62,901 bases of DNA, taken from contig JAOHKG010000003.1 of the NCBI GenBank assembly GCA_028101095.1, forward strand, positions 1 to 62,901. The letters are read 5' to 3'. Both the position numbers and the translations under genes were made by a program. Under the pieces are notes generated by a model. That model ran no database searches. It was not told the origin of the DNA and saw nothing but the letters and a program-made list of their open reading frames with translations. Below, one piece after another: positions 42,427 to 60,985 of this stretch (position 1 is the first letter of the stretch; each line of letters starts with the position of its first letter). The stretch comes from Fidelibacterota bacterium. GTDB taxonomy: Bacteria > Fidelibacterota > Marinisomatia > Marinisomatales > UBA1611.

Positions 42427-42446
42427 TGTGGACAACTTGTGGATAA
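42427..42446. promoter_or_regulatory. Two tandem DnaA boxes overlapping the dnaA start codon
   Basis: TGTGGACAA (42427-42435, one mismatch) and TGTGGATAA (42438-42446, perfect reverse complement of TTATCCACA). They are 11 bp apart and in the same orientation. Confidence 0.6.
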
Positions 42447-45153: not shown

Positions 45154-46003
45154 AATATATACCAAATAAAATAAACCCACCTCCAATTACAGCTTCTAAC
45201 GGAAGTTCCTCTGAAAAAAGAATAAAACCAAAAACTGATGCTATTAATGGTTCACCCAAAGGCACGGAAGCTACAGCCGTTGGTGATAAAAATTTTATTG
45301 AATAATTTAAAAGGTTGTGACCCAATATAGAGGGAACAAAGCCGAGAAAAAGAAGCCAGATAAATTGTTCTTTTTTAAAGCTCAGTAGGTCATCTCCTGT
45401 AAGTAAAGCTAATAAAGCAATTGTAATTGAAGCGATAAGAAAGAGAGTTCTTCCATAGGTTGTGTTTTCAGTGTTTTTTCTGATTTTTGCTGCGAATATA
45501 TATGTTACCGCAATACACATACCGCTTAAAAGAGATAGAAAGTTTCCATATAATAACTTCGTATCAAGATTTATGCTTTGTCCTTGAACAATTAAAAGAC
45601 CAATCGTAGAAATACTAAGACCCCAATAAACTTCTTTCTCAAATTTTGTACCCTTTAAGAAAGCTACAAGTGTTGTAAAAAAAGGCCCCGTTGTTGCCAA
45701 TAAAGTAGCATTTGCAATAGAGGTGTTTCTCACCCCGAGAAAAAAGAATGAAAAATGAAGACCTAGACTTATTCCTGCAATTAAAATTCTCTTTTTATTG
45801 GTTCTTGATAAAAAAGATGGTTTTTTTGATAGGCTATATATCCACAAAAAACTACTCGCAAGAAGCATTCTCCAAAAAGCCAGCGTTAAAGCAGGGACAG
45901 TTGCTACATATCTAATGACCAGTGACGTTGAGCTTACCGATATTAAAGCAATGGTGAGTAAAAGATAGAGTTGAGTTGAAAACTTTTTATTCCGGGAAAT
46001 CAT
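45125..46003 (-). CDS. EamA/DMT family transporter
   Basis: 292 aa, 10 TM segments, two EamA-like halves. Confidence 0.75.
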   Translation of the reverse strand: MISRNKKFSTQLYLLLTIALISVSSTSLVIRYVATVPALTLAFWRMLLASSFLWIYSLSKKPSFLSRTNKKRILIAGISLGLHFSFFFLGVRNTSIANATLLATTGPFFTTLVAFLKGTKFEKEVYWGLSISTIGLLIVQGQSINLDTKLLYGNFLSLLSGMCIAVTYIFAAKIRKNTENTTYGRTLFLIASITIALLALLTGDDLLSFKKEQFIWLLFLGFVPSILGHNLLNYSIKFLSPTAVASVPLGEPLIASVFGFILFSEELPLEAVIGGGFILFGIYFIITGHNKD

Positions 46004-47375
46004 TTAAAATAGAAACAATGCAAGATGTTAGTTTTTTTGCATAAGGTATATGTAAAAATTCATTTGGCCCATGTGCGTTTGACTCTGGTCCCAATACACC
46101 CGTTATAACAAATTGAGCTTTTGGAAATTGATCTCCAAGCATCGCCATAAATGGAATAGTTCCACCCTCACCCATACTAGATGGAGGGTTTTTGAAATAA
46201 GTATTTGAAGCTGAACGTATTGCACTTTCAAGCCAAGGAGACATTGGTGGCGCGCTCCAACCGGAAGCAGGCTCTTCAAACTCTATTGAAACCTTTGCAT
46301 TGTAAGGAGGATTATCAGTAAGGGCTCTTTTAAGAGCTTCCTGAGCTTTATTTTGGTCAACCAATGGTGGAATTCTCATTGAGAGCTTTAAACTTGTATA
46401 AGGTCTTAAAACATTACCCGCATCTTTAGAACTCGGTAAACCATCTGCACCAACAATAGACAAAGCCGGTTTCCAGGTTGTTCTGAGATGACCTTCTATC
46501 GGGTTATCTGTGGAGGGAGAAACAGGAAAACTTTGATGTTCTTCTAAAATAGCAACCAACTGCACCACACCATCCCTTATGTGCGCCGGAATATCTGTTT
46601 TTAATTCGTCTAATAAAATTTCACCAGTGTTTTCATCTTCTATCCTTGATAAAAGTTGTCGTATTATTCTAAAAGAGGAAGGTATATATCCGCTTATTCC
46701 AGAGTGCATACCTTCATTAAGAACCTCAACTTTTAGCGTTCCACCAATTAAACCCCTCAAAGAGTTTGTTGTCCAAAAGCGCTTGTAATCTTCTGTTCCA
46801 GAGTCCAGGCAAACAACTAAATTTGGTTCCCCAATTAAATCAGAACAAAGCTCCATATAGTGTGGAAGGTCTGGAGATCCGCTTTCTTCACAAAACTCAA
46901 TTAAAACTAAAATTCGAGGTAAGCGACAATTGTTTTTTTGTAATGTTTTTATAGCACATAGCGACGCAAACAGAGCATAACCATCATCAGCGCCACCACG
47001 ACCATAAAGTTTTTCATCAATTAATACCGGCTTCCAAGGACCCTTATCATTATCCCAACCTTCCATTTCAGGCTGTTTATCTAAATGGCCATACATTAAA
47101 ACATTGCCGCTCTTTTCACCTGGTATATCAATTAAAATTATAGGAGTTCTTCCGTCTGATTCTTTAATTGATAAAGTAGCATTCTTTGGTAAATGCTTTT
47201 TTGTCCAATCCGCAGCAAGCTCAAGAACCTTATCCATATGTCCGTTTGCTTTCCAGTTTTTATCAAAGGAGGGAGACTTGTTTGGGATTTTTATATATTC
47301 AGTTAACGTTGGGGTAATATGAGTGTCCCAAAACGAATCTACTTCTAGTTGAATTTTCTTATTGTCTATTTTCAT
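45987..47375 (-). CDS. M20 family metallopeptidase (dipeptidase-like)
   Basis: YGHLDKQP and GRGGADDGY metal-ligand blocks, 462 aa. Confidence 0.8.
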   Translation of the reverse strand: MKIDNKKIQLEVDSFWDTHITPTLTEYIKIPNKSPSFDKNWKANGHMDKVLELAADWTKKHLPKNATLSIKESDGRTPIILIDIPGEKSGNVLMYGHLDKQPEMEGWDNDKGPWKPVLIDEKLYGRGGADDGYALFASLCAIKTLQKNNCRLPRILVLIEFCEESGSPDLPHYMELCSDLIGEPNLVVCLDSGTEDYKRFWTTNSLRGLIGGTLKVEVLNEGMHSGISGYIPSSFRIIRQLLSRIEDENTGEILLDELKTDIPAHIRDGVVQLVAILEEHQSFPVSPSTDNPIEGHLRTTWKPALSIVGADGLPSSKDAGNVLRPYTSLKLSMRIPPLVDQNKAQEALKRALTDNPPYNAKVSIEFEEPASGWSAPPMSPWLESAIRSASNTYFKNPPSSMGEGGTIPFMAMLGDQFPKAQFVITGVLGPESNAHGPNEFLHIPYAKKLTSCIVSILNDFPE

Positions 47376-47381
47376 TTTATT

Positions 47382-48659
47382 TTAACCTGTTATATTTTTA
47401 TAAATTCTTCCATTTTTCATCACAAAAAAAGTTTTTTGTAATAAAGAAATATCATCAAGGGGGTTTCCTTTTACAGCAACAATATCAGCAATTTTTCCAA
47501 TTTCTAAAGAGCCTAAATCAGTTTCAACTCCCAAAAGCTTAGCGGAGTTTATTGTTGCAGATTTAATTGCATCAAGAGGTTTCATTCCCTGCTCTACCAT
47601 GTAAACAAATTCTTTTGCATTTTCGCCATGAAGAGAAACACCTGAATCTGTTCCAAATGCAATTTTTACATTTCCCTCTAAAGCCTTTTTGAATGATTTT
47701 TTAATTTTAGGACCAATTAGTTCAGCTTTTTTTCGGATTAACTCTGGGTAATACCCAACATCTTTAGCTTTTGTAGAAACAAATTCCCCCGCTGATATAG
47801 TTGGAACATAATAAGTCCCGTATTCTTTCATTAACAATAGTGATTCTTGGTCCATTAATGTTCCATGCTCTATAGACCTAACACCAGCACGAACAGCTCT
47901 TTTTATACCTTCTGGACCATGAGCATGAGCTGCAACATGCATGTTATAATCTGTTGCAGTTTCAACAATAGCTCGTATTTCTTCTTCGCTGAACTGAGGG
48001 TTTTGACCACTTTTCCCAAGACTAAGAACGCCCCCGGTAGCTGTAATTTTTATTAGATCAGAACCTCTTTTATATTGATGTCGCACAGCCTTAGCTGCCT
48101 CGATCGCACCATTGATTACTCCAGAGGAGGGGCCGGGATCACCCATAAGTTCATATTTCATTCCGTTTGTTGGATCGGCATGACCACCAGTGGTTGCAAT
48201 TGCTTGACCTGCGCTAAATATCCTAGGTCCGGGAAGTAAGCCGTTTTTTATTGCATCTCGTAGCGAGTTATTAATTGGTCCCCCCAAGTCTCGTACAGTA
48301 GTAAAGCCAGCAAACAATGTTTTTTCAGCAAAAATTATGGATTGATATGCATAGTCATCTAAGTTCTTTGTATACCTCTCTAAATACTTTTTTTTGTTTG
48401 ATTCACCAGAAAGGTGTGTGTGCATATCCATTAATCCGGGAAGAACAGTATACTCATTCAAATCAATTAAAACATCATCTGGTCCGGGGTTTGTATACCC
48501 TTCAGCAATATCAATTATTCTATCTTTATCAATGAAAATTGAAACAACTTTTGATATGGGTTTTTCTGATCCGTCTATTAAAACGCCACAGTGTAATATT
48601 ATGACTTGTGAAAACAGAGAGTGGAAAATAAAAAAGAAGAGGGTGAAACTTTTGGTCAT
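47382..48659 (-). CDS. Secreted metal-dependent amidohydrolase
   Basis: Signal-like N-terminus, DMHTHL, AHAHG and FGTDSG blocks of the amidohydrolase superfamily. Confidence 0.8.
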   Translation of the reverse strand: MTKSFTLFFFIFHSLFSQVIILHCGVLIDGSEKPISKVVSIFIDKDRIIDIAEGYTNPGPDDVLIDLNEYTVLPGLMDMHTHLSGESNKKKYLERYTKNLDDYAYQSIIFAEKTLFAGFTTVRDLGGPINNSLRDAIKNGLLPGPRIFSAGQAIATTGGHADPTNGMKYELMGDPGPSSGVINGAIEAAKAVRHQYKRGSDLIKITATGGVLSLGKSGQNPQFSEEEIRAIVETATDYNMHVAAHAHGPEGIKRAVRAGVRSIEHGTLMDQESLLLMKEYGTYYVPTISAGEFVSTKAKDVGYYPELIRKKAELIGPKIKKSFKKALEGNVKIAFGTDSGVSLHGENAKEFVYMVEQGMKPLDAIKSATINSAKLLGVETDLGSLEIGKIADIVAVKGNPLDDISLLQKTFFVMKNGRIYKNITG

Positions 48660-48683
48660 CAGGTTGAGAATAGGGTATTTAGG

Positions 48684-49490
48684 TTAGCTTTTATTTTTAT
48701 TTATTTCTCGAACAACTTTTTTTTGTAAAAAATTTTTAAAAAAAGTGTTTAAAAAAGGAATTAAACTTAGTTTTTTAGGAACATAGATTGTTTTTTTATC
48801 TTTTTTTATACCATCTATAATACTTTTTACACAAGACTCTAGGCTAACGGATTGACTTGTATGTTTTCTAGATTCATCTTTATGTTTTTTTCCATCAGCT
48901 CGGAAAGAGTTTCCTCTTAGATTTGTCCCTCTAATCCAACTTAAAACAGCTTCTAGTATGGTAATTTCTTCTTTGTTTTCCATTGAAATAGTTTCTAAAA
49001 AACCATGAAGGGCATGCTTTGAAGCAACATATCCGGAATGGTTTGGAAAACCCATAAGAGCTTGAGCGGTAGAACAACTAACAATTTTACCCTTTGATTT
49101 TTTCAAAAAAGGAATTGCGGCAAAGCAACAGTTTACAGACCCTAAATAGTTTGTTTTCATCAGGTCTGAAAAAAAGCTGGGGTCTGTTATTTCATCAAAC
49201 TTCGCCCACATACTTATACCCGCATTTAAGACTAAGCCATCGATTTGCCCAAATTTTTCGATAGTCCTGTCTATTAAACTTTGACATTGTTTTAGATTTG
49301 TTATATCTGTTTGAACATAAATGGCTTCTCCACCAGAAGTATTAATTTTTTCAGAAACTTTTTTAAGTTTATGTTCGGTTCTTGCAGCGCAAACAACTTT
49401 GGCACCCTCTTTTGACAGCTGCTTAGATAATTCCTCCCCAATACCTGAAGAAGCCCCTGTTATAATGAATACTTTATTCTTTAGAAGCAT
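48684..49490 (-). CDS. Short-chain dehydrogenase/reductase; candidate acyl/alkyl-DHAP reductase
   Basis: TGASSGIGEE, NAG and YVASKHAL (YxxxK) identify an SDR. The specific role is inferred only from operon context. Confidence 0.8.
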   Translation of the reverse strand: MLLKNKVFIITGASSGIGEELSKQLSKEGAKVVCAARTEHKLKKVSEKINTSGGEAIYVQTDITNLKQCQSLIDRTIEKFGQIDGLVLNAGISMWAKFDEITDPSFFSDLMKTNYLGSVNCCFAAIPFLKKSKGKIVSCSTAQALMGFPNHSGYVASKHALHGFLETISMENKEEITILEAVLSWIRGTNLRGNSFRADGKKHKDESRKHTSQSVSLESCVKSIIDGIKKDKKTIYVPKKLSLIPFLNTFFKNFLQKKVVREINKNKS

Positions 49491-49504
49491 ATTTATATAA
49501 AACT

Positions 49505-51262
49505 CTAATCGTTTACAATATTGTTGTCTACTCCAAAAATGTTTTTTGGATCCTGATCTTTTTTAATTCCTTTTATCAATGATATACTGCCATTGGAGAT
49601 TGTATCTTTCATAAAGTCTTTTCTTAATTTACCAACTCCATGATGATGTGATATTGAACCACCGTTCTTTATAAAGTTAGCCCTCATAGCATATTCAATC
49701 TCTGTAAAAACATCTTCGGGTCTCTCTATTCCATCGTAACACATTGCAATTGTGTTATACATGCAAACACCGGTGTGATATATTTTTGAAATTCGAGAGG
49801 TGAAAAACGGCTTACCGGGAAGATTATGTTTTTTATGTAGTTCGTTTAAGAGTTTATGGGCCTCTTCTTTCACCTGATTTATCTTAGACCAGGGAACAGA
49901 GGTTTCCATTGTTTCACCTAAGATGTTTTGTGTAAATATCAGTTCTCTTATATAGGCAATCACCATTGTTGCAAGGTACCCGCTCTTTCCGGTACTCTCA
50001 CCGGCAACAAAACCATTATGTTTTTTTGAAAGTGATTTTAAGTTTTTCAATTGCTGTTTTACTTCTTGAGAAGAACCTTCAATCTTAAATGTAGCAGCCG
50101 TAAACTTTTCGGGATCAAACTTTTTTATATTAAAGAGATAGTATTTGGTTAACTTATCTAAAAAGCCACCGACACCCTCTTTTTTTTCTTTTAGAGAACT
50201 TCCTAATCTAATTTGAAGGTTATCAGCTAATCGGGAGCTTGCGGGAACCATATTTGAATGATATAAGTCATACATAAATGAAACTCCGCTTTCCCAACTA
50301 TAAAATAAAATAGATTCATATGTAGACTTTTCTGGTAACCGATGGACTTTTAAAGTTGCTTTTGTTATTATTCCAAGGTTCCCCTCTGAACCAAATAAAA
50401 GGTTTTGAGCTTTTATTCCAATTGAAGCTCTTGTCAACGGTTCTATTTGGTTTATAGTTCCAGTTGGTGTAATCATTGTTATATTTTGAACAATATCTTC
50501 GATATTTCCATATCTATGTTTTTTCATACCCGCGGCATTGGTAGAAATCCATCCACCTACGGTTGAGAACTCATAGCTATCTGGTTCATGTCCAGCTGTT
50601 AGACCCTTATCGTTGAGTTGTTTCTCTAATTCTTTTCCAGTTATACCAGAATAAACAGAGACCATTAGATTTTTTTCATCAATACTTTCAATTGAGTTCA
50701 TCCTTCTGGTGTCTACGGAAACAATCATTCTTTTTTCTTTTTTTGGTGGTCTTAGTGCGTTTGTTACATTTGTACCGCCACCATAAGGAATAAGACAAAC
50801 ATCATGTTTCTTTGCAAGTTCGACCAAGCGAATTGTTTCTTCTTCATTCTCTATGTAAAAAACTAAATCTGTAAATTTTTCTAGTTTATTATATAAAACT
50901 TTATATACTTCGTCTGTGGAGTGTTGTCCATGACTATGAAGAAGACGCTCATTGTTTTCGATTGAGTATCTGTCTTCATCAAAAGTTTCCTTCATTTCTT
51001 TCACAAACATTTCGTTAATGTTCGGTTTTTCGATATATTTAACTTTTAGTTCTTTAACTTTTGGTTCTTTTTCTATTTCTATTTCAAGTATACTTTCAAC
51101 GAAAGGAATAAAACTTGTCAGTTTTTTACCACAAACAGGATATCTGTTTCCTGAGAATGTTACCGCTTTATTATCTTCTATGATAAAAGCGGAATCCTTA
51201 TAACCCCACTTGTGTCCCCAGTTCTCATCGTTCACACCAAAAAATTTTTTATTATCACTCAT
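49505..51262 (-). CDS. Alkyldihydroxyacetonephosphate synthase-like FAD oxidase (AGPS/ADPS homologue)
   Basis: WGHKWGYKDS N-terminal block, FAD/PCMH PYGGGTNV, GHEPDSYEFSTVGGWISTNAAGMKKHRYGNIEDIV, and HHH loop SISHHHGVGKLR. The track's longest ORF starts at 51298; Met at 51262 leaves a 4-nt gap to the upstream stop. Confidence 0.8.
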   Translation of the reverse strand: MSDNKKFFGVNDENWGHKWGYKDSAFIIEDNKAVTFSGNRYPVCGKKLTSFIPFVESILEIEIEKEPKVKELKVKYIEKPNINEMFVKEMKETFDEDRYSIENNERLLHSHGQHSTDEVYKVLYNKLEKFTDLVFYIENEEETIRLVELAKKHDVCLIPYGGGTNVTNALRPPKKEKRMIVSVDTRRMNSIESIDEKNLMVSVYSGITGKELEKQLNDKGLTAGHEPDSYEFSTVGGWISTNAAGMKKHRYGNIEDIVQNITMITPTGTINQIEPLTRASIGIKAQNLLFGSEGNLGIITKATLKVHRLPEKSTYESILFYSWESGVSFMYDLYHSNMVPASSRLADNLQIRLGSSLKEKKEGVGGFLDKLTKYYLFNIKKFDPEKFTAATFKIEGSSQEVKQQLKNLKSLSKKHNGFVAGESTGKSGYLATMVIAYIRELIFTQNILGETMETSVPWSKINQVKEEAHKLLNELHKKHNLPGKPFFTSRISKIYHTGVCMYNTIAMCYDGIERPEDVFTEIEYAMRANFIKNGGSISHHHGVGKLRKDFMKDTISNGSISLIKGIKKDQDPKNIFGVDNNIVND

Positions 51263-51983
51263 ATAACGATCTCGCTTTGTCTTTAATTTTTTGTTCAAGT
51301 TCTAATGTCATTTTATCTACAGCTTCAGAAATTTCTTCTTTTGAAGCATTGCTACTGTTTAAAAACGATTTAGGGTATATAGGTTCAAGAATGTATACAA
51401 TAATTCTAGAAGGTCTCATTAATATTTGATCTTTTGGCCATGCTTTGTGTGATCCGAAAATAACGGCTGGCAGAATTGGTTTATTAAGGCTAATAGCAAA
51501 GCTTGAGGCTCCTTTTTTAAACGCAGTTATATTTCCGGGTTTGCCTCGGGTACCCTCAGGAAAAAAAATTAAACACCTTTTATTATAATCCATAAACGAT
51601 TGACATAACTTAAGAGTATCTTTTATGGATAGTTGCCTCACGCCGTCTATTTTGCGATCTATTGGAATTAAGTTCATAACAGTGTTGATTAAAAATTTTC
51701 TAATCCAACTATCAAACCAATAATCTTTTGCAGCAAGCATTCCAAAATGATTAAAACTTTTTTGTGCAGAGGCAGATAAGAGAGCTACATCCATGTGGCT
51801 ATTGTGGTTACTACAGAAAATATACGATGAGTCGGGAATGTTTTCACGTCCGTAGACTTTTAAAGGTGTGTAGAAAATAAAAACAAGTTTACTGTATAAG
51901 TAAAAAAGCGTTTTCCAAATTTTAAAATAGAAAGGTTGATTCCCCAGCAAATATTTAAACTTGGGGTTTTCTAATACTCCCAT
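51255..51983 (-). CDS. HX4D glycerolipid acyltransferase; candidate DHAP acyltransferase
   Basis: NHNSHMD and FFPEGTRG blocks. The track's longest ORF starts at 52049; Met at 51983 leaves an 8-nt gap after the upstream stop. Confidence 0.75.
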   Translation of the reverse strand: MGVLENPKFKYLLGNQPFYFKIWKTLFYLYSKLVFIFYTPLKVYGRENIPDSSYIFCSNHNSHMDVALLSASAQKSFNHFGMLAAKDYWFDSWIRKFLINTVMNLIPIDRKIDGVRQLSIKDTLKLCQSFMDYNKRCLIFFPEGTRGKPGNITAFKKGASSFAISLNKPILPAVIFGSHKAWPKDQILMRPSRIIVYILEPIYPKSFLNSSNASKEEISEAVDKMTLELEQKIKDKARSLYE

Positions 51984-51991
51984 GAAAGGAT

Positions 51992-53152
51992 TTATTTTCT
52001 TCCATATTTCATATGTGCGTCCGTCCAAGTGTGTGAACCAATAGCACAAATTAGAGAAATCTCTAGAGCCAATGCGGAACCAGCAATTATTTCTGCTAGT
52101 TTCCTTGAGGAATGTTCTCCTTCATTACAGCCAAGAAGTTCTAAGTTTTTGTTTTGCATTTTAAGGCGGGTTCCGCCACCAATTGTTCCAACTGTTAATG
52201 ATGGAAGTGTTAGTTTAAACTTCAGCCCGTCTTCTCTTTTTTCTATACCAATATGAGCGATGCTGTTTTCTGCTACACATGCAGCATCTTGTCCAGTCGC
52301 CAAATAAATAGCTGTTAATGCATTAGAGACGTGCAGTCCGTTTCCATGCGTTCCCGCCATGCTAGATACAATGGGGAAAAAACTCCAGGAATCAAATAAA
52401 ATATCAGGATCCATTTTTAAAACTCTTTTCATCACACTATTCTTAATGGTTGTTTCTGCCGTAACCGCATGTCCGCGACCGAGTAGCATATTTCGAACAG
52501 AGGCTTTTTTATCACTGTTTAAATTTGATTCTAAAATATAATTCTGATTTGTTTTCTTCTGAATAAATTCGCAAGCTACCTGGGCTGCAAGTGTAACCAT
52601 ATTCTGCCCAGCTGCGTTGCTCGTGTTTAATACAATATCGAGTATTACATAGTTTTGTACTGTATATTGATCTATCCTTAAAACTTTACCGTGGCTTGTA
52701 GTGCTTTCGGCAACATTTATAATTTCTTTTTCATTCGCTTTCACCCAGTTCTGAAACTTCATGCTTTCATCAATATTGTCAAAAATAAAAACTGGAGCAC
52801 GAGAAAGCTCTTGTCTAAAGTGGCGCGCAACAGTTCCACCGCTAATATTTGCAGCATAAATACCACGATTCATTGACATCGACAAAGTTCCTTCAAGAGT
52901 ACAAAGAGGTATACAAAACTCACCCTGAGCATAAGCACCATCTAGAGAAAGTGGTCCGACAACAGACATAGGAACCTGCATAAAACCAACATGGTTTTCA
53001 ATAATTCCCTGAAGGTCTTCTGCGTTATCCCGACTTGTGTCATCAATTTCTACACCAGAAAACTGTTTAACCCATTCTTTTCTAGCATCTGTATCTTCTT
53101 GTTTGTAGCCCCTGGGAATAGAAACATTTCGTTCATTGTTTTGATCAGACAT
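51992..53152 (-). CDS. HMG-CoA reductase-like NAD(P)H thioester reductase (catalytic domain only)
   Basis: ENHVGFMQVPMSVVGPL, TLEGTLSMSMNRG, SDKK, GQDAAC, TVGTIGGGT and C-terminal His, laid out as in class I HMGR. The cofactor block reads NAAGQNM instead of DAMGxNM. Confidence 0.75.
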   Translation of the reverse strand: MSDQNNERNVSIPRGYKQEDTDARKEWVKQFSGVEIDDTSRDNAEDLQGIIENHVGFMQVPMSVVGPLSLDGAYAQGEFCIPLCTLEGTLSMSMNRGIYAANISGGTVARHFRQELSRAPVFIFDNIDESMKFQNWVKANEKEIINVAESTTSHGKVLRIDQYTVQNYVILDIVLNTSNAAGQNMVTLAAQVACEFIQKKTNQNYILESNLNSDKKASVRNMLLGRGHAVTAETTIKNSVMKRVLKMDPDILFDSWSFFPIVSSMAGTHGNGLHVSNALTAIYLATGQDAACVAENSIAHIGIEKREDGLKFKLTLPSLTVGTIGGGTRLKMQNKNLELLGCNEGEHSSRKLAEIIAGSALALEISLICAIGSHTWTDAHMKYGRK

Positions 53153-53307
53153 ATTTAAGTTTTTTCTTTGATTTAATTAAAAGTTAACATTTATCGATTC
53201 TTTTACCCAACAGAGCACTTCACGATATATAAATATACAGGAATGAATAAAGATTTTCCAACATAAATACGGGTTATAAAAAACAGTTTCAAGGTTAAGA
53301 ATTAAGG

Positions 53308-54348
53308 TTAATACCTTCTGTTTTTATTTTGATTTTTATCAAAAACAGGTTCTCCTGTTTCTGGGTCAAACTCTACACCCGAGGACTTTTTTTTAATAGG
53401 GATTCCTGTTTCTGGATTAAACTCTAACCCCGAAGGTGGCTTTTTAATAGGGTCTCCCGATTCTGGATCAAACTCTAACACCGGGTTTATTTTAGGTCTT
53501 GGCAGTGGAGTAAGTTGGTTTCCCTTTTTTAAACTAGTGTTAAAAAAGTTAAAACCCAAGCTAGCACTTATTGTCGGGTATTTTTCCGCCACACTAATAT
53601 CATATACACCTTTTAAATTCAAAAACTTAGAACTAAGTAGAGAAGCATCTATTTGAAGAGTAGTAGAAGTGTTCATTCCAAAAAGGCTAAAAATAGAACT
53701 GAAATTTTCTACTCCGAGAGTAATTCCAACCCCCTTCATTAAAAAGTTATAAGAAGCTCCTTGATACCTCTCCGGTTCCTGTGAACCGTAGGTAAAGATA
53801 CTGTGTAACCCTCCATAAAAAGGGTTTTTCTTAGACGTTGTTGTTTTAATGGATTGAATTGAATGAATCGCGGTACCAATTTCAACATTTTTATTTAGTT
53901 CAATATTTATTCCAGCTTTGAAGGGTCTCCGGTTTTTTGAATTTATATATTTTTTGTACTCGAGACCAACATGCCACGCGAATGGACTCCCGCCCCCTAC
54001 ACCAACTCCACCAGATAAACCAGCTTCTGAATTTTTATACCCCTTTAATATTGACATTTCTCCTCTTAAGCCTGCTAATCCAGTATTGACACTTAATCCT
54101 TGATATGAACCATTATTCCAATAATAATTATAAGAATAATTTTCACTGGGAGATATATACCCAAGATTTCCTTCGGGAGCGATGTTCAAAGACCCATTAA
54201 AGGATGTTGCTTTTTCCCCTTCTTCCAATATTTTTGACGTTCTGATATGGGAATTATTATAACAACCAGAAAGTATAAACAAAAAAAGCGGAAAAAGAAG
54301 AATCCTTTTTATCAACTTAGCTGGCAAAAATAATATATGAAACCACAT
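53308..54348 (-). CDS. Hypothetical lipoprotein, Gly-rich barrel-like, with C-terminal EFDPETG repeats
   Basis: Lipobox LSGC, alternating Gly/aromatic strands, three tandem repeats at the C-terminus. Confidence 0.6.
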   Translation of the reverse strand: MWFHILFLPAKLIKRILLFPLFLFILSGCYNNSHIRTSKILEEGEKATSFNGSLNIAPEGNLGYISPSENYSYNYYWNNGSYQGLSVNTGLAGLRGEMSILKGYKNSEAGLSGGVGVGGGSPFAWHVGLEYKKYINSKNRRPFKAGINIELNKNVEIGTAIHSIQSIKTTTSKKNPFYGGLHSIFTYGSQEPERYQGASYNFLMKGVGITLGVENFSSIFSLFGMNTSTTLQIDASLLSSKFLNLKGVYDISVAEKYPTISASLGFNFFNTSLKKGNQLTPLPRPKINPVLEFDPESGDPIKKPPSGLEFNPETGIPIKKKSSGVEFDPETGEPVFDKNQNKNRRY

Positions 54349-55228
54349 AGACTACGAACCCTGGAATTATAAGATATTCAGGTTTTCGCTTAAGGGTTAT
54401 AGACGGTCCAAACATTTCTATATATTCAAGATAGTTCAATGGATTTGCGATAGCCTCATCATATTCTTGTTGTGATATTATGTTTGTTTCTAGCAATTCT
54501 ACTGGTGACCGGCCATCAACAATTTTTACGAATTGTTTTTTTGTTATTTGTCCGGAGTAATATCTTTGATATACCCCTTCTCGAGGTTTTCTTTTACCCT
54601 TTTTAGTTTTTTCAATAAAATGTTTATTCTCTAATATTTTTTCTATCTCATCTTGAACCAACGCACGGATTTCTTTCTCTGTTAGATAGCGTTTTTCGGA
54701 TTCTTCTTTTTTTACGTCATCAATTTTGGTGTCTAAACCTGGAAAGTCTGGGTTTAATATGTTTGTTTTTGGTACAACTTCTTTGCTTGGGCTCTCAATC
54801 AAAGGTTTGGTTGTTTTAGTTATGTTTTCAACGTCTTCTTTTGGTTTTTTTTGGATTACAGTCTTTTTTTCAGCTTCTTTCTGCTTCTTTTCTCGAAGTA
54901 AAGTTGTATTAAAAACATCTGGGATGTTTGCTACCCATTCACCGGTCATTGGATCCAGCTCAGGTGGGAAAAGAATTTCTTCTGAAAGAGTGTTTTCATC
55001 GCAATTATAAGATAGAATTAAGCCTGAATTAGATTTCACAATTTCAATACTTTCGCAAGAGAAATATTCAATTTTATCATCGATTAAAACGTGAATGTGG
55101 TTCATATATGTACCCAAAAACTCACCACGAACTGTTTCCTTTTTTTCTTTAAAGAAAAAATTAACTTCAGTAGCAAACCCAATGCTTAGATTGAAAAAAA
55201 TAAAAATAAGCCACTTTGTTTTAACCAT
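54317..55228 (-). CDS. Hypothetical envelope protein (signal peptide, Lys/Glu-rich linker, C-terminal TM anchor)
   Basis: 303 aa. N-terminal hydrophobic segment, small beta motif, DPMTGEW, charged coil, terminal helix YLIIPGFVVYVVSYIIFAS. Confidence 0.55.
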   Translation of the reverse strand: MVKTKWLIFIFFNLSIGFATEVNFFFKEKKETVRGEFLGTYMNHIHVLIDDKIEYFSCESIEIVKSNSGLILSYNCDENTLSEEILFPPELDPMTGEWVANIPDVFNTTLLREKKQKEAEKKTVIQKKPKEDVENITKTTKPLIESPSKEVVPKTNILNPDFPGLDTKIDDVKKEESEKRYLTEKEIRALVQDEIEKILENKHFIEKTKKGKRKPREGVYQRYYSGQITKKQFVKIVDGRSPVELLETNIISQQEYDEAIANPLNYLEYIEMFGPSITLKRKPEYLIIPGFVVYVVSYIIFAS

Positions 55229-55694
55229 ACGTCTTGCCTGAAATATCTATTTTTAAAGGTTTATAAAAAGTATTTCTTCCAAGTAAAGCACCCAAAGTTG
55301 CCCCAACAAAAGTAAAAACTTTTTCGTGTTGATCACTAAAACTTTCTTTGGAAACAATAAGGGTTAAATATCCAATAGCACCCCCAAAAACGGATACACT
55401 TGTTGCCAAAAAAAACTCTGCTTTTTGAGGGACAATAAGTACGTAATCAATATTATTGTGGCTAAAGAGATTGTGGTTTATTCCATCCGAAACAATAAAA
55501 CTTTCAGGTGTTACAGTGACGAGTTCTCCCTGAACCTCCATCTTACCGGGTCCAACAAAACGAATTGTCTTTCCAGAATAGTTGTTTTTGAAATTTTCTA
55601 AGCGCGTAATTTTTACAGACTCAGAACGCAAAGCGGTCTGGGAAAAGATAAGTGACATAAAAACTATCGCAATAAATATTATTTTTAAAGTCAT
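55221..55694 (-). CDS. Hypothetical small envelope protein with glycine-zipper helices
   Basis: 157 aa. Signal peptide, small beta motif, GGAIGY and GATLGALLG glycine zippers. Confidence 0.55.
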   Translation of the reverse strand: MTLKIIFIAIVFMSLIFSQTALRSESVKITRLENFKNNYSGKTIRFVGPGKMEVQGELVTVTPESFIVSDGINHNLFSHNNIDYVLIVPQKAEFFLATSVSVFGGAIGYLTLIVSKESFSDQHEKVFTFVGATLGALLGRNTFYKPLKIDISGKTYG

Positions 55695-55705
55695 ACTAAG
55701 CTTTT

Positions 55706-57214
55706 CTAAAACTCAAAAAACTCCCAATAAAAATCTATATAAGGTTGTTGAAAATGAAGACCAATCTTAAAAGTTTCATTGAGGGTGTATTGTAAGCCAA
55801 AATCAAAATCCACCATACTTACGCTTCCAGCTGCAGACTCTAAAGAAAAAGCGGCTGTTCCATCATCGCCTAAATAATCTGAGGCTAAATCAGAAAAGTT
55901 CATTGCTCGGTACCCATTGTCTATCCATGCAGACCCTAAAAACTTTAAATCTTTTCTTAAGTCATATTCTAGAGAAGCCCAGGCGCGAAAAGGAACTTTA
56001 TATAGTTTTTCCGTACTCCAGCTTACAACACGTTCGCTTCCACCAATATTAACAGAAGGTTTAAGAAACTCATTTCTATCCAGAAAAGCATTTGAGGCTT
56101 TTATTCCTGTTGACCAACCAATTTTTCCTCTTCCAGTTGGATTAACCCTCCTTGATGAAAAAACAAGATAAGCTTCTATGTAGAAACGATCAGCATTGAC
56201 AGATTCATTTGTTACATCCGTTACACTAATATCTTTCATGGAGCCTTTAAGTTCATTTAATGGAATCGGTTCGCTTTCACCTTCTGCATTTTCACTATCA
56301 ATAGTTATAGCATGCGCATACCTAGAGACAATACTTTCAGCTGGATATTTTCTATGAAGACCAAGCCCCCAAGATGCTGCAACTTCTTTTTGAGCTGATT
56401 TTTTATGATAAAATCGCATTCTAGGATGAAGGTTTAGGTCGTTATTAAAATTTGAACCAATTTTAGAAGTTATCATAAACCTATCTGTTAATCCATACCC
56501 AATAGACAAGCCACTAAGATAAAAAGTGTTTCCTGCTAGTGGAAAAGCTGTAGGGTCTAAAAAAACATTTATCAGTTTAGATTCACCTTGGTAAAACTTT
56601 GTTCTTTCTTCAGATTTTCTATCTAAAACTCCACCATGGTAGCGTTTCATTTTTTGAATATCTCTTTTCTGAACAACAGCATCGCCGTATTGTGTTCTTA
56701 TAACAAACTCTTCTGCTGTTTCGCCCAGAACAGAACCAATAAAAAACTCACCGTTTTTATTCGTTATTTCTGCTGATTCTTCAAGAAACTGCTCAGAGGG
56801 AATGTTGAATGTTCCACTTGAAGTCTTTAATCTAATAACTTCATTTTCAATTGATAAAATCTCACCCTCTCTAATGGTTCCATCTAAAAAATGAAACCGT
56901 TTTTGCATACCAGTTTCTAGAGAAGTAGCAACCGTTAAATCTCTTTTTATTGTTTTTGTTGTTTCTTTTTCTACTGGTTTTTTAATGCTTTGGCTTTGAA
57001 AGCCTTTTATTACTTCTGCGCCTTGCATGCGGTTCAAATCGTCAAGAGGCGCACCATATTGACTCAGCAAATGGTTGTACAAGTCTTGACTAGAAAAACC
57101 TGCGCTAGCAGAAAGAGATTCTATTGCCGTTTTTTGACCAGGGAGAATGTTTCCCGACTGACTTAATAAAAAAGATGAAAGAAAAAATACCAATATAGAA
57201 TAGATTGGTTTCAT
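55706..57214 (-). CDS. Hypothetical outer-membrane beta-barrel protein with N-terminal soluble repeats
   Basis: 502 aa. Signal peptide, two small beta motifs, about 300-aa alternating-strand region ending ...YWEFFEF (terminal Phe). Confidence 0.6.
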   Translation of the reverse strand: MKPIYSILVFFLSSFLLSQSGNILPGQKTAIESLSASAGFSSQDLYNHLLSQYGAPLDDLNRMQGAEVIKGFQSQSIKKPVEKETTKTIKRDLTVATSLETGMQKRFHFLDGTIREGEILSIENEVIRLKTSSGTFNIPSEQFLEESAEITNKNGEFFIGSVLGETAEEFVIRTQYGDAVVQKRDIQKMKRYHGGVLDRKSEERTKFYQGESKLINVFLDPTAFPLAGNTFYLSGLSIGYGLTDRFMITSKIGSNFNNDLNLHPRMRFYHKKSAQKEVAASWGLGLHRKYPAESIVSRYAHAITIDSENAEGESEPIPLNELKGSMKDISVTDVTNESVNADRFYIEAYLVFSSRRVNPTGRGKIGWSTGIKASNAFLDRNEFLKPSVNIGGSERVVSWSTEKLYKVPFRAWASLEYDLRKDLKFLGSAWIDNGYRAMNFSDLASDYLGDDGTAAFSLESAAGSVSMVDFDFGLQYTLNETFKIGLHFQQPYIDFYWEFFEF

Positions 57215-57369
57215 AATAATGGTTCCCCTAGTTAAGGTTTTTGTTTTATCTTGTTGTTTTAAACTTAAAACTAAAAAATAACAAAAGCCTTTTTATTATT
57301 GCAACAGGCTTAAGCTATGATTAACTTTAATTAAGTAAAAGTTAAAAAACAAGGGCAATTTAATAAATA

Positions 57370-58068
57370 GTGAAAAACACTACAGAAATAATTAACGACT
57401 TGATGGAGCTACGCGGCATGAAAAGAAAGCGAGACGTTGCTCAGTACTTTGGTGTTAGCCCTCAGGCATTAAGCATTTGGATCGCAAAAGATCAAATACC
57501 TCCTAAGCATTTATTAAAACTATCAAGGCAGGAAAAAATGGAAAGCATTTCTCGTTCTACTTCTTACAATAAGCTCAATAATACAGAAACAACAGATGAG
57601 CTAGAGACAGTAGTTAACTATTTAATGAAAGAAAACTTAAGGTTAAAAGAGGAGTTGAGGGAGTTTAAATCAAAACAAAAAACCTCTGACACATCAAACA
57701 ACCAAGGTGTGTTTGATAAAATTATAGCAGACTCGCTCTATATTTCGGGGAAAGTTTCTGATGGAATTATTACTGAAATTGATGGAAGTTGGGAAAAAAT
57801 AATGGGATACAAACCAAATAATCTGGTCGGGAAATCTTATGATAGGGATGATTTAATTCACCCAGATGATTTAAAAGCAGCAAAAAAAATACAAGAAAAA
57901 CTAAAAAACTCTGAATCAATCACTTTCTCTAAATATAGTACTATACAAAGATGGAAGAACGGCGAAACTGGAAAATATATAATGTTGAGTATGGTTTGGG
58001 ATATTAATGTAAATGAGGATCTTGCATTAATAGTTTGTAAACCAATTGATGGGTTCATTTCGGATTAA
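57370..58068 (+). CDS. HTH (phage CI-repressor-like) / coiled-coil / PAS regulator
   Basis: KRDVAQYFGVSPQALSIWIAKDQIPPKHLL helix-turn-helix, LKEELREFK coil, PAS-like GIITEIDGSWEKIMGYKPNNLVGKSY. GTG start. Confidence 0.65.
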   Translation: MKNTTEIINDLMELRGMKRKRDVAQYFGVSPQALSIWIAKDQIPPKHLLKLSRQEKMESISRSTSYNKLNNTETTDELETVVNYLMKENLRLKEELREFKSKQKTSDTSNNQGVFDKIIADSLYISGKVSDGIITEIDGSWEKIMGYKPNNLVGKSYDRDDLIHPDDLKAAKKIQEKLKNSESITFSKYSTIQRWKNGETGKYIMLSMVWDINVNEDLALIVCKPIDGFISD

Positions 58069-58077
58069 AATAAGTTT

Positions 58078-58485
58078 ATGGGGGCAATTCTATTTGCCGG
58101 TTTAATTAGGGTCTCATTTGTATTGAGTGAGGGTAAAAGCAATGCCCCCAAAAAATTAGAGTTAGAAGATAAAAAAGGAGCAAGAAGTTTAATTAAAATT
58201 AATAATCTCCGAGATGAGAATGTAATGAAAAAAATAAATAGAATAGGAATCCGATTCTCAGTTTGATCCTCTTGTAGGAATCATTGGTGGTATGGTGTAG
58301 AATATTTTATTTCTGAGCAATTTTCTTTGGGCGGTGAAGTCTCAATGAACTTTGTAATGAACGAATGGAAAAATGAAAACCAAGACGAATACGATTATGA
58401 TGATAACGAAAATATATCAGAGGACTGTAGGTTAACTCCTGGAGTAGTTCTTATTCAATTTATTTTTAATTATTATTTTGATTGA
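58078..58485 (+). pseudogene. Possible small outer-membrane barrel remnant split by an in-frame TGA
   Basis: The 62-aa ORF ends at TGA 58264-58266. The same frame continues ...WWYGVEYFISEQFSLGGEVSMNF...GVVLIQFIFNYYFD, and its TGA overlaps the next ATG (TGATG). Confidence 0.3.
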
Positions 58486-59441
58486 TGAATATTTTTAACG
58501 ATATCCTATTTGCTGTAACAAGAGAGGATTATAAAATAGAGCATCAAACAATAATAGAAAGAAACTATAAAAAAATTCTTACAGTTTGTTCAGGTGGTTG
58601 CACGCCACTGTCATTGAAAGCATTATCAAAAAACTTGATGGTAACCGCATTTGACATTAACCCACATCAATTAATACATTTGAATAATAAAACTAAGCTC
58701 ACCCAGACAAAAAAATTAAAACAATTAAATGCAGGCTTTAAAGGTGATATGGCTCTTAATCAATGTGGGAAATTTGAAAAAATGTTCCAAGTTTTTAGAG
58801 TTTCATTTATTAAAAATATAACTACTGAATCTGAAATAGAAGAACTCTTCAATCTCAAAACTGAGGAGAAAAAGAGAAATTATATCATATTAAGTTGGTT
58901 AAAGAACTCGAATATTAAAACCCCTTTTAAAAAAGTGTTTAACGATGAAGTAATAGAATCAATCTTTAGTAAGCGGGCAACGCAACATGCTACTCCAGGT
59001 ACGTATATTGAGTATTTTTTTAATAAGATAATGAATTCTTTTAAATCGAATAATTTTTACAAAAACCCTTTTCTACAGCACATTTTTTTAGGATATTATT
59101 TGAAAGAAAGTTTTATGCCATACATTAATTATCAAAAAGAATTAAAGATCAAAACCGTTCTTGGTACTGTTCATGATGTTCCCAATATTGAAACATATGA
59201 TTTGGTCAGCCTATCTAATCTGTTCGATTGGTGTGATACACAGTTTGTAAAGCAATGTGCATCGTACTTATCTAAGCTTAGATCCGGATCAGGTATTATT
59301 CTAAGGCAGCTAAACAATGACAAAAACTGGTATCCTATTTTTAAAAATCAATTTGAAGAAGACACTTCATTCAATACTTATTGGAAAAAAAATGATAGGA
59401 GCATGTTTTACGATCATTTTAGACTTTTCATAAAAAAATGA
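58485..59441 (+). CDS. BtaA-like (DUF3419) SAM-dependent 3-amino-3-carboxypropyl-transferase family protein
   Basis: FAVTREDY..., ILTVCSGGCTPLSL, AFDINPHQLIHLN, LSNLFDWCD blocks as in BtaA. It is shorter (318 aa) than BtaA. The track starts it at TTG 58482. Confidence 0.65.
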   Translation: MNIFNDILFAVTREDYKIEHQTIIERNYKKILTVCSGGCTPLSLKALSKNLMVTAFDINPHQLIHLNNKTKLTQTKKLKQLNAGFKGDMALNQCGKFEKMFQVFRVSFIKNITTESEIEELFNLKTEEKKRNYIILSWLKNSNIKTPFKKVFNDEVIESIFSKRATQHATPGTYIEYFFNKIMNSFKSNNFYKNPFLQHIFLGYYLKESFMPYINYQKELKIKTVLGTVHDVPNIETYDLVSLSNLFDWCDTQFVKQCASYLSKLRSGSGIILRQLNNDKNWYPIFKNQFEEDTSFNTYWKKNDRSMFYDHFRLFIKK

Positions 59442-60334
59442 ATTTATTATTTCAAGTTTGCGATGAAGAAGGCTTATCTAAATACGTCCAAGAATTAAAA
59501 GAGATCGAAGAAAATATCTTATATCCTTTAGAAAATGGCGCAGAATCATTTAGAATAAGTCACGGAAAGATGTACACTCCATTTTTTACAAATCAAGGCT
59601 ATAAAACAAGGTTTCTTGTAATAAAAGATGGGCAAAAAGTTATAGGTGGGATTGTTGCTATTTGGAAAAACATAACAATATCAAATCAAATACATAAACT
59701 TCTATATGTTGCAGATTTAAAATTAAAAAAAGGTTATAGAGGGAAAGGTGTTATTAAAAGAAGTCTTTCTTACTTATTTATAAGATGGCCTTTTATAAAA
59801 AACTTTCAAGGGTGGGATTTAATATACTTTTGTGCAATGCAAAGACGAGAAGTTGGAGTAGATAAAACGTTTAAAGGGATGCACTTAGGAAGGTTGGCAA
59901 AACCAGTTGCTGAACTTTTTATATATATGGTTGACCCAAAGTTATTTTCGGATCATAATTTTTCTAGACTAGAGTACAGACCCTTAAAACATATAAATTT
60001 GAGCCAAGATCGGGAAAAAAATGTTCTTTGGAACGATGGAATAAAAGATATTATTTCAAATAAAAACGGGCAGAAAATCAAACTTGGGCACTTAAACCCA
60101 GAAATATTTATCAAGTTAAATAAAAAAAAATTTGATGATGCGATCAAAGAAATAAAAGAGAAAACAGGTAGTTTAGCTTGTTTTTCGATTGATACAAAAG
60201 AACAAGAAAAACTAGATTGGCTTAAAGAAATGGGCTTACAATCAGAGACAAAATGTAAAATATTTTCATTCAGTCCTTTCTCATTTGGATCTATTAAATC
60301 TAATACATTTTATATATCAACAGGAGAAATATAA
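59438..60334 (+). CDS. Hypothetical protein with GNAT-like acyltransferase core
   Basis: VIGGIVAIW...LLYVADLKLKKGYRGKGVIKRSL resembles GNAT motif A. ATGA overlap with the upstream gene. Confidence 0.45.
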   Translation: MNLLFQVCDEEGLSKYVQELKEIEENILYPLENGAESFRISHGKMYTPFFTNQGYKTRFLVIKDGQKVIGGIVAIWKNITISNQIHKLLYVADLKLKKGYRGKGVIKRSLSYLFIRWPFIKNFQGWDLIYFCAMQRREVGVDKTFKGMHLGRLAKPVAELFIYMVDPKLFSDHNFSRLEYRPLKHINLSQDREKNVLWNDGIKDIISNKNGQKIKLGHLNPEIFIKLNKKKFDDAIKEIKEKTGSLACFSIDTKEQEKLDWLKEMGLQSETKCKIFSFSPFSFGSIKSNTFYISTGEI

Positions 60335-60985
60335 ATGAAGACATTTATAAGAACACTTAAGCAAAAAACTCCAATACACAAAAACTATTATTTCGCAAAG
60401 TTGAGAAATGATGAATTAACGCTGGAAGAGTTTCAAAAATCACAACTTAACTTTTTCGATGCAGTTCTTTCATTTACAAAACCAATGTTTATAATCTCAA
60501 GCAAATTAGATTCGTACGAACAGAGACTGTTAGTTTTAGAAAATATTTTCGAAGAACATGGTAATGGTGACATAACAAAAAATCATGGAAACACATTTGA
60601 GGAGTATTTAATTTTACTTGGAGTAAATAAAAAAGAGATAAAAAACCGTAGGGTAAATAAGTCATCACAAAATTTTAATCTTTCTTTGATAGAATACTCC
60701 CAAAAAGAATCTACGTACTTTAGTTTAGCAATGATGGGAATCATTGAAGAAAGGTATTCTGAAATGTCAAAACTAATATCAGAAAAATTATTAAAAAACA
60801 AATGGCTAACAGAGGAAACGCTAGTCCACTATAAAGTTCATGAAAAATTAGACATTGAACACGCAGAGTCTTTTTATCATTTAATAAGTTCTAAGTGGTT
60901 AGATAAAAACATACGAAATGATATAAAAAAAGGGCTTCTGTTCGGAAATAATTTGATTTTAAATTTATATACAGATCTGCTTTGA
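60335..60985 (+). CDS. Heme-oxygenase-like diiron oxidase/oxygenase (HDO; CADD/PqqC/TenA-like fold)
   Basis: FEEHGNGDITKNH, IIEERY and HEKLDIEHAESF give a 3-His/3-carboxylate-type ligand pattern. Confidence 0.7.
   Translation: MKTFIRTLKQKTPIHKNYYFAKLRNDELTLEEFQKSQLNFFDAVLSFTKPMFIISSKLDSYEQRLLVLENIFEEHGNGDITKNHGNTFEEYLILLGVNKKEIKNRRVNKSSQNFNLSLIEYSQKESTYFSLAMMGIIEERYSEMSKLISEKLLKNKWLTEETLVHYKVHEKLDIEHAESFYHLISSKWLDKNIRNDIKKGLLFGNNLILNLYTDLL

Follow-up and report, generated by a model that had tools for sequence, protein, structure and literature searches.

A predicted outer-membrane barrel, its divergent regulator and a set of shuffled partner proteins in the envelope of Marinimicrobia

What do four tightly packed genes for exported proteins do in a marine bacterium when none of them matches a known system? 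The genes, which we call A to D, lie in a 62,901-nucleotide stretch from a Fidelibacterota bacterium (GenBank assembly GCA_028101095.1, contig JAOHKG010000003.1, positions 1 to 62,901), referred to here as the window. A first-pass annotation had treated them as a four-gene envelope operon. Comparison with related loci does not uphold a fixed unit of this kind: what stays constant across the phylum is A, a predicted outer-membrane barrel protein, with a divergent regulator of the helix-turn-helix (HTH) plus PAS type, and what follows A is a variable set of partners bearing DPxTGE motifs or a small beta-module, including at least one DPxTGE protein. We tentatively read the whole as a scaffold or tether that faces the periplasm and is built around an abundant barrel of the outer membrane, held by the shared parts. 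The four genes are:

Gene A, 55706..57214, minus strand: 502 aa; signal peptide, three-helix domain, two beta-modules and a C-terminal barrel ending ...YWEFFEF
Gene B, 55221..55694, minus strand: 157 aa; signal peptide, probable beta-module, Gly-rich hydrophobic hairpin, conserved FYKPLKIDISG tail
Gene C, 54317..55228, minus strand: 303 aa; signal peptide, beta-module, DPMTGE, Lys/Glu-rich spacer, C-terminal hydrophobic anchor
Gene D, 53308..54348, minus strand: 346 aa; lipobox, ~10-strand barrel, Pro-rich linker, three DPxTGE-type repeats

The open reading frames (ORFs) lie on the minus strand exactly where the first-pass annotation had placed them, overlaps included (by the ORF listing, an 11-nt gap between A and B, an 8-nt overlap of B and C and a 32-nt overlap of C and D). 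Hydropathy and sequence inspection agree with its claim of export signals on all four products, as A, B and C have signal-type N-terminal segments and D has the lipobox LSGC, and its picture of four envelope proteins with shared parts is sound: they share export or anchor signals, modules and motifs. The surrounding DNA is ordinary chromosome of ~33% G+C, near dnaA, yidC, mnmE, mnmG, gyrA and mfd, and many seawater metagenomes hold DNA nearly identical to the A-D locus.

No known machine is recognisable in these proteins. Pfam and NCBIfam scans of A-D gave sub-threshold matches only, and PDB sequence searches with family profiles of A, C, D, A's helical domain and B/E (E-type proteins being partners at related loci, described below) gave nothing significant. 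No Pfam, NCBIfam, PDB or Foldseek result ties A-D to Bam, Lpt, Tol, the type IX secretion system (T9SS), curli, OmpA or autotransporters, so the earlier failure to assign the genes to Bam, Lpt, Tol, T9SS or curli was justified. Nothing among the searches of A-D points to a role in secretion. A CsgG domain was seen only in an unrelated protein, P0288, which shares A's helical domain.

Gene A is the natural starting point. Its 467 homologues are all metagenomic, and when 1.84 billion representative proteins were searched exhaustively with the A profile, only 227 clusters matched at E <= 0.001, so the family is small and lineage-restricted. An AlphaFold2 model built on a 40-sequence alignment (mean predicted local distance difference test score, pLDDT, 71; predicted template modelling score, pTM, 0.44) divides the protein as follows:

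A three-helix domain, 56987..57151, minus strand: aa 22-76; ILPGQKxAI..LS..AGF..L..YL..YG..L..LSR.QGA.VIK.FQ
A beta-module 1, 56792..56905, minus strand: aa 104-141; Sm/SH3-like small barrel
A beta-module 2, 56636..56779, minus strand: aa 146-193
A beta-barrel domain, 55709..56539, minus strand: aa ~226-502, from the strand pattern of the model

A is predicted to be an outer-membrane barrel protein, with a signal segment at aa 3-18 by hydropathy, barrel strands in the model and an aromatic end to the C-terminal strand. Foldseek against the PDB matches it to the outer-membrane barrels Vibrio OmpT, OmpC, chitoporin, AlgE, FadL/TodX and LptD (E 3e-5 to 1e-3, probability 1.00 to porins). The C-terminus, D494 F Y W E F x E F502 (...IDFYWEFxEF), is invariant across homologues, as expected of a barrel-assembly signal. 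The Phe-terminated barrel that the annotation had proposed is thus backed by the model and by matches to porins, FadL and LptD, with low template modelling (TM) scores. At the sequence level, direct scans and a family-profile search gave A no significant Pfam, NCBIfam or PDB match.

In front of the barrel, helices 25-37, 42-53 and 62-73 are modelled at pLDDT 83-88, preceded by the signal helix and followed by a disordered linker. The small beta units, with strands at aa 104-139 and 146-193, reach pLDDT 80-89 (module 1, 85-89). Foldseek also matched the A model to Spt5-containing and Tudor chains, which we assign to the two modules because the aligned length is short. The three-helix domain has no Pfam or PDB match in profile searches; a peptidoglycan-binding bundle of the PG_binding_1 kind was considered and rejected, as there is no Pfam match and only weak Linker_histone and DUF3072 noise. 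The same domain occurs inside C-like or E-like proteins (P0197, P0198, P0200, P0291, P0306, P0352). It also occurs in P0288, a 425-aa CsgG/DUF3280-like lipoprotein from the representative search that has N-terminal CsgG (PF03783)/DUF3280 matches and a C-terminal SHOCT; this presence marks the domain as a mobile envelope module rather than one private to A.

The fold matches raise a first alternative, that A forms a regulated, substrate-specific uptake pore of the porin or FadL kind, which the HTH-PAS protein switches on in response to a signal, with B-D accessory or unrelated. Porins, chitoporin, AlgE and FadL/TodX are indeed A's best Foldseek matches. Their TM-scores are only 0.2-0.3, however, no Pfam porin family matches, and a plain channel leaves unexplained both the periplasmic helix-module extension and the part-sharing proteins that almost always stand downstream of A. 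We return to this alternative with the regulator.

The first-pass annotation had called D a barrel-like lipoprotein, and both halves of that description are supported. D has 35 homologues; the lipobox residues G28 and C29 are invariant across 21 aligned homologues, and an AlphaFold2 model (pLDDT 66, pTM 0.59) has ~10 long antiparallel strands at aa 46-270 and a disordered tail. The last strand ends in FNFF before the linker, and the tail (aa 271-346) is 76 aa of low-confidence repeats. Foldseek matches D to OpcA (TM-score, TMt, 0.43) and Legionella Dot/Icm porin I (0.46), and also to OmpT/Pla, EspP, intimin and invasin, at E 1e-3 to 1e-2. With its lipobox and 10 modelled strands, D is predicted to be a second, lipidated membrane-type barrel, so the cluster has two predicted barrels and not one. 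Homology between the A and D barrels was tried and rejected (hhalign P 0.38).

The order of parts in D (barrel, Pro-rich linker, repeats) suggests another alternative: D could be a mini inverse autotransporter whose linker and repeats pass through the barrel of D itself, or through A, so that adhesive repeats are displayed at the surface. The beta-domains of EspP, intimin and invasin are among its fold matches, and the number of repeats varies, as is common for surface repeats. In a metatranscriptome contig, 119 nt of the repeat tail (53375-53495) are skipped and 17 other letters stand in their place, a net loss of 34 codons or ~2 repeats, and aligned D homologues also differ by one 17-aa repeat; this points to a repeat number that is polymorphic in natural populations. 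A second contig variant (54091-54138) skips 46 nt in the barrel region.

Several results nonetheless make surface display by D improbable. Its TMt to the intimin and invasin beta-domains is only 0.33-0.36, against 0.43-0.46 to plain 10-strand barrels, and no Pfam autotransporter family matches, so D has no Pfam support as a member of the inverse autotransporters (intimin/invasin). E-type proteins carry such repeats N-terminally, with anchors at their C-termini. Most telling are long forms of D (~450-490 aa): P0143-P0154, L004 4551-6029, L006 3975-5303, and two copies in tandem in L028 (9455-10903 and 10918-12267). Past the barrel and repeats, these forms have a hydrophobic segment rich in Gly, then an amphipathic stretch and, at the end, a hydrophobic helix, and a tail that runs into a hydrophobic C-terminal membrane domain, as in P0143-P0154, is hard to square with export through a barrel. 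On paper, long D would be a single polypeptide that joins an outer-membrane barrel to an inner-membrane-type anchor at its opposite end. Contigs found via the long D protein P0150 or the C-like protein P0196 begin at the gene itself.

The repeats lead to the first shared part, the DPxTGE motif. The annotation had noted it in both C and D, correctly, and it is rare elsewhere: the 62.9-kb window holds one copy in C (LDPMTGE, invariant in the family), two strict copies in D, or three with FNPETGI, and one further match that is probably due to chance. The three D repeats read FDPESGD, FNPETGI and FDPETGE. Across 28 related loci, ORFs starting <=3 kb downstream of A contain 64 motifs in 22 thousand amino acids, compared with 5 in the other 130 thousand, and where at least 900 bp of sequence follow A, as in 22 loci, a motif-bearing protein stands right after it in 21. 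The repeats are weakly detected by Pfam's DUF2963 (PF11178), where window D scores 18.3 bits (cut-off 22.6) and the relative P0291 scores 26.4 bits; 6 of 16 B/E members match it (best E 1.4e-6), and several E-type proteins pass or approach the cut-off.

The second shared part is a beta-module of ~40 aa with the pattern h.h.L..G..h.G.h......h.h.T..G.h.h....I. Hidden Markov models built from A's two modules alone are too narrow and match neither B, C or E nor each other. Comparison of profiles with hhalign goes further, aligning A module 2 with the E-type module (P 3.3e-5) and with B (P 2.3e-4), B with C (P 8.5e-4) and B with E (P 1.3e-3). A jackhmmer search seeded with the module of P0291 reached A 153-190 at E 2e-5 in round 2, when the profile did not yet contain any A sequence. 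After two more rounds it reached A 107-141 at E 5.5e-7; it gave B only E 0.02-3 (about 2 for the window protein) and did not reach C.

The link to C comes through a named family, NCBIfam NF047433 (Lepto_7_Nterm). P0234, a short paralogue of A, passes the family's 43-bit cut-off with 48.6 bits, and 11 of 29 aligned C-family members match over the whole model (best 42 bits, E 5.7e-11, aa 8-67), their matches occupying the columns of window C aa ~20-66. None of the window proteins passes the cut-off: A reaches 17.1 bits (E 0.0034, aa 147-188), and B and C have no match. In PDB searches, the combined B/E profile gave weak matches only, five of seven being Sm/LSm folds. There is thus statistical support, from sequence comparison, that A (twice) and C carry the same Sm/SH3-like module of the NF047433 family, and B probably carries it too. 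The annotation's ~35-aa beta-rich module in A, B and C therefore stands for both copies in A and, via relatives, for C, and is weaker for B (hhalign P 2.3e-4 to 1.3e-3). The module is not new, since it belongs to this named and uncharacterised family, which also occurs in Leptospira.

The other parts of B and C concern anchoring. B begins MTLKIIFIAIVFMSLIFSQTAL, which has no Cys, so this is an ordinary signal peptide and not a lipobox. Its probable beta-module (aa ~40-90) is followed by a hairpin (aa ~95-141) that opens with a Gly-rich hydrophobic segment at aa 100-114. The label 'glycine zipper' has behind it just a sub-threshold match of B to PF05433 (13.1 bits, cut-off 24.2, E 0.092). In the B/E alignment, B's hairpin and FYKPL tail share columns with the FYKxL segment of E-type proteins, so that B looks like an E-type protein minus the repeats and minus the last anchor. 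C, with 47 homologues, has a module with a conserved Cys pair (aa ~20-80) and an invariant LFPPELDPMTGE at aa 86-97, the invariant positions of the alignment being C58, C76 and D92-G96. It then has a Lys/Glu-rich spacer at aa 106-250 (145 aa, 41% charged residues) and a 19-residue hydrophobic segment at its extreme C-terminus (aa 285-303), in agreement with its earlier description as a transmembrane-anchored Lys/Glu-rich protein.

Whether A-D belong together is best judged from other genomes. A scan of one genome per species found 31 A-carrying loci, almost all from Candidatus Marinimicrobia/Neomarinimicrobiota (SAR406), a few having other bin labels; every homologue and locus found comes from a metagenome or single-cell genome. 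We compared synteny by tblastn of the window proteins against these loci and by reading the downstream ORFs. B follows A in 14 loci, and C and D occur in six each. The genes are therefore syntenic elsewhere, with the full A-B-C-D order in three related loci (L001, L004, L011) and partial sets in many others, and wherever the genes exist their order is always A, B, C, D.

The partners nevertheless change quickly. In L011, identity to the window is 68% for A, 47% for B, 30% for C and 36% for D, while the HMG-CoA reductase (HMGR) that follows D is 90% identical. In loci where A is ~50% identical, B-D are replaced by E-type proteins of ~240 aa. These combine a signal peptide and 2-3 DPxTGE repeats with a single module, a hydrophobic segment rich in Gly, an amphipathic FYKxL stretch and an anchor at the C-terminus. 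E proteins, 450-aa D forms and some C-like proteins have their C-terminal membrane domain in common. Judged by their sequences, B, C and D are fast-evolving, domain-shuffled cassettes, and such extensive shuffling within one neighbourhood suggests a common functional context.

A sceptic could instead hold that only A and its regulator form a functional unit, B-D being fast-evolving, lineage-specific envelope proteins in a permissive spot. The L011 identities just given and the patchy presence of B, C and D suit this. The fixed order and overlapping genes do not, nor do a transcript contig that covers A, B and C, the sharing of modules and helical domain with A and the strong motif enrichment downstream of A, and we consider this explanation unlikely.

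A short paralogue of A, seen in 80 marine metagenome loci, shows which form of A the partners follow. It has a signal peptide, two clear modules and a barrel and lacks the helical domain. Where it stands in tandem with A, a DPxTGE protein again follows A. A simple rule that the module binds DPxTGE is weakened by the stand-alone paralogue, which has modules and no motif-bearing neighbours. As side observations on this paralogue, a small divergent HTH gene is present in L033 and L069 (HTH_3 by Pfam in L033 only), and in L033, L069 and L084 a gene for ~360-390 aa lies downstream of the paralogue (PF03372 endonuclease/exonuclease/phosphatase, checked in L084 only), followed by a 245-aa protein with a signal peptide and no Pfam match.

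On its other side, A has a constant companion:

Divergent regulator, 57370..58068, plus strand: 232 aa; CI/Cro-type HTH plus PAS (Pfam PAS_3 6.5e-8, Phage_CI_repr 4.1e-6)
Conserved intergenic element, 57290..57345: CTTGTTTTTTAA-N5-ACTTAA-N6-TTAAGCATAGCTTAA on the A-sense strand

The HTH-PAS gene, which lies beyond the stretch covered by the first-pass annotation, is divergent from A in 25 of 31 loci and is A's most constant neighbour. The 155-nt spacer between the two genes contains a conserved element of ~45 nt with CTTAA-N6-TTAAG-type inverted repeats, including a perfect 8-nt inverted repeat (57321-57328 / 57338-57345). It was aligned across eight loci with A proteins 59-68% identical to the window A, is present in the spacers of L001, L003, L004, L011, L019, L028 and L030, and is a candidate operator and promoter region. 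In the more distant lineages L013/L014 and L020/L029, a different but equally palindromic sequence occupies the corresponding position, which would suit co-evolution of operator and regulator.

Four marine metatranscriptomes contain contigs over the locus, regulator gene included. In run X26, contig depth is ~520 for A, ~120 for B/C, ~33 for D plus HMGR and 65 upstream; in X27 and X28, A is at ~30 against 1-15. A is deepest and D shallowest in all four runs, and the two deepest (X26 and X28) show a stepwise fall from A to B/C to D. A single RNA contig (54664-55996) covers B completely, together with A's 3' end and a portion of C. In two runs each, RNA contigs also end at 57229, towards A, and at 57353, towards the regulator, positions that bracket the conserved element. 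Even within the limits of contig depth as a measure, the data show transcription of A-D in the sea, the message of A being dominant. A sigma-70 scan found fewer promoter-like sites than in shuffled sequence, though that consensus may not apply to this phylum, and a terminator scan found no convincing terminator after D.

These results bear again on A as a regulated channel. A constant divergent regulator with a conserved operator-like element is what such a channel might have, A's RNA contigs are the deepest, as those of abundant porins are, and a stand-alone paralogue also has its own divergent HTH gene. Weighed against the low fold similarity, the unexplained extension and the part-sharing neighbours, the channel explanation is one that we take seriously and find doubtful.

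One RNA contig also extends past D, into a run of lipid-type genes on the minus strand (48684-53152) directly downstream:

HMG-CoA reductase (HMGR), 51992-53152, minus strand: follows D in the window
PlsC-type acyltransferase, 51255-52049, minus strand
FAD-linked oxidase, GlcD/alkyl-DHAP-synthase type, 49505-51298, minus strand: 597 aa
Short-chain dehydrogenase (SDR), 48684-49490, minus strand

This run could be an ether-lipid or isoprenoid-lipid cassette, and L011 keeps the order HMGR, acyltransferase, oxidase. A-D might then serve outer-membrane lipid handling tied to the adjacent HMGR, PlsC-type, FAD-linked oxidase and SDR genes. HMGR follows D here, in L001 and in L011, one RNA contig runs from HMGR into D (X26, 52020-54091) with no convincing terminator after D, FadL/TodX are among A's fold matches, and PlsC-like genes lie near several paralogue loci. 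The adjacency is confined to the closest relatives, however, with unrelated genes following A in most loci, and A-D have no catalytic or lipid-binding family match in Pfam or NCBIfam, so a lipid role for A-D seems hardly probable.

The scaffold or tether is the reading that we prefer, tentatively, and it would work as follows. The core would be A, a well-transcribed outer-membrane barrel whose N-terminal extension carries the three-helix domain and two modules. After it would come one to three small exported partners (here B, C and D) built from one kit of parts: the beta-module, DPxTGE turn motifs, the helical domain, the Gly-rich hairpin, the C-terminal anchor and the lipidated 10-strand barrel. 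Both ends of outer-membrane barrels face the periplasm as a general rule, which would place A's helix-module extension and D's tail in the periplasm. The barrels A and D in the outer membrane would be joined to membrane-anchored B (by its hairpin) and C (by its tail anchor), C's charged spacer being long enough to cross much of the periplasm, and contacts would run through modules, helical domain and DPxTGE motifs. Such an assembly would be structural, tethering or docking, rather than an enzyme or a classical secretion system. We infer the physical contacts, the membrane of each anchor and the function from two predicted barrels with periplasmic extensions, shared and shuffled parts, DPxTGE enrichment, fixed gene order, restriction to Marinimicrobia, the RNA contig over A-B-C, and C's spacer and anchor.

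Several points weigh against this scaffold reading. The beta-rich C-terminal region of A (aa ~230-498 in the model) is modelled at lower confidence (pLDDT 45-86), and its Foldseek TM-scores are only 0.1-0.3 (LptD, 0.11-0.15, is a generic barrel match). Not every lineage has B, C and D: in L010 they are reduced to B after A, and in many lineages the partners are of another type. The stand-alone short paralogue has neither a DPxTGE neighbour nor an HTH-PAS gene, and the paralogue neighbourhoods together indicate that partners track A proper, the form with the helical domain, and not the modules. A conditionally expressed channel would account for a dedicated regulator no less well than a structural protein does. 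Finally, contig depth is a poor measure of expression, and contaminating DNA is possible.

A bolder version of the scaffold can be imagined, in which SAR406 has an undescribed trans-envelope linkage, the helical domain and modules of the abundant barrel dock the DPxTGE turns of its partners in a periplasmic network of domains and motifs, and in some lineages the 450-aa D forms covalently bridge both membranes; we think this very unlikely. DPxTGE resembles the eukaryotic Kelch-binding ETGE/DPSTGE motif, and by that analogy docking to a periplasmic beta-propeller such as TolB would be a speculative possibility.

The locus matters because the cell surface of Marinimicrobia (SAR406), a group widespread in marine metagenomes, is essentially uncharacterised. 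To our knowledge, the group has no cultured representative, and a literature search on Marinimicrobia outer-membrane metaproteomics found nothing usable. The locus offers a phylum-wide, transcribed outer-membrane protein with a dedicated regulator and domain-shuffled partners, none of them in Pfam. If the parts interact, they would represent a new way to organise or bridge the Gram-negative envelope, and would give a first functional handle on the NF047433 module, which is used in many unexplained Leptospira paralogues. Should A prove to be no more than a regulated channel, it would remain a good candidate for a major surface protein of SAR406, useful for metaproteomics, phage-receptor work and cell-sorting probes.

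Some further features of the neighbourhood deserve a record. In L010 (9494-12456), B lies directly before a gene beginning MNSDQLLETVNTFWDNHITPTL, and a multi-pass membrane protein is encoded next. Their positions and sizes suggest that these two may correspond to the window's M20 peptidase (45987-47375) and EamA transporter (45125-46003); one lineage would then have the ~8-kb stretch from C to an amidohydrolase (47382-55228) and the other would lack it. On the plus strand, 3' of the HTH-PAS gene (58482-60985), are genes for a DUF3419 protein (DUF3419 is the family of BtaA-type betaine-lipid synthases), a 298-aa protein without a Pfam match and a haem-oxygenase-like 'iron-containing redox enzyme' (PF14518), and these may be another lipid-remodelling set. 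Another PAS signalling protein of the window, a 624-aa GAF-PAS-adenylate/guanylate cyclase, is encoded at 28749-30623 on the minus strand. The dnaA gene (42439-43800, plus strand) adjoins yidC, mnmE and mnmG on the other strand, and cumulative GC skew turns at ~40 kb; the replication origin is probably within the window, ~12 kb from the A-D genes.

How, then, does the locus compare with known systems? The outer-membrane tethers OmpA and OmpM, like A, combine an abundant barrel with a folded periplasmic extension, and OmpM1 appears among A's Foldseek matches as a generic barrel match at rank 37. A's extension differs in being a helical domain with two Sm/SH3-like modules, and Pfam and NCBIfam searches at E up to 1 found no OmpA_C or SLH domain in A-D. 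Connectors of the TonB/TolA type resemble C, which combines one membrane anchor with a small globular domain at its end and a long spacer that is charged and contains Pro, but C's anchor is C-terminal, behind a cleavable signal peptide; Pfam and NCBIfam found no TonB_C or TolA domain in A-D, and there are no ExbBD/TolQR genes within 5 kb. SlyB and other glycine-zipper 2TM lipoproteins (PF05433) resemble B in having a Gly-rich two-helix hydrophobic hairpin beside a small beta domain, whereas B scores below the cut-off, has no lipobox and has its domains in the opposite order to SlyB. Small 10-12-strand barrels (OpcA, OmpT/Pla, Legionella Dot/Icm porin I, intimin/EspP) resemble D in their ~10 long antiparallel strands (best TMt 0.43-0.46), but D has no sequence-family match, E-values are only 1e-3 to 1e-2, and D is lipidated at Cys29 with a DPxTGE-repeat tail.

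Two uncharacterised families come closest in sequence. The short (Y/F)DPxTG(E/K) repeats of Pfam DUF2963 are like those of D and the E-type proteins, although window D falls below the cut-off. NF047433 is the N-terminal domain of Leptospira LA_0442/LA_0875 (related families are LA_3334, LB_137, LIC_13076 and PTPDL), on which we found no literature; there, too, a signal peptide precedes a small beta-module, but the carriers of the module in Marinimicrobia, a different phylum, are a Phe-terminated barrel and tail-anchored proteins. The locus is thus a lineage-specific, uncharacterised take on a familiar plan, in which outer-membrane barrels have periplasmic domains and are accompanied by anchored partners.

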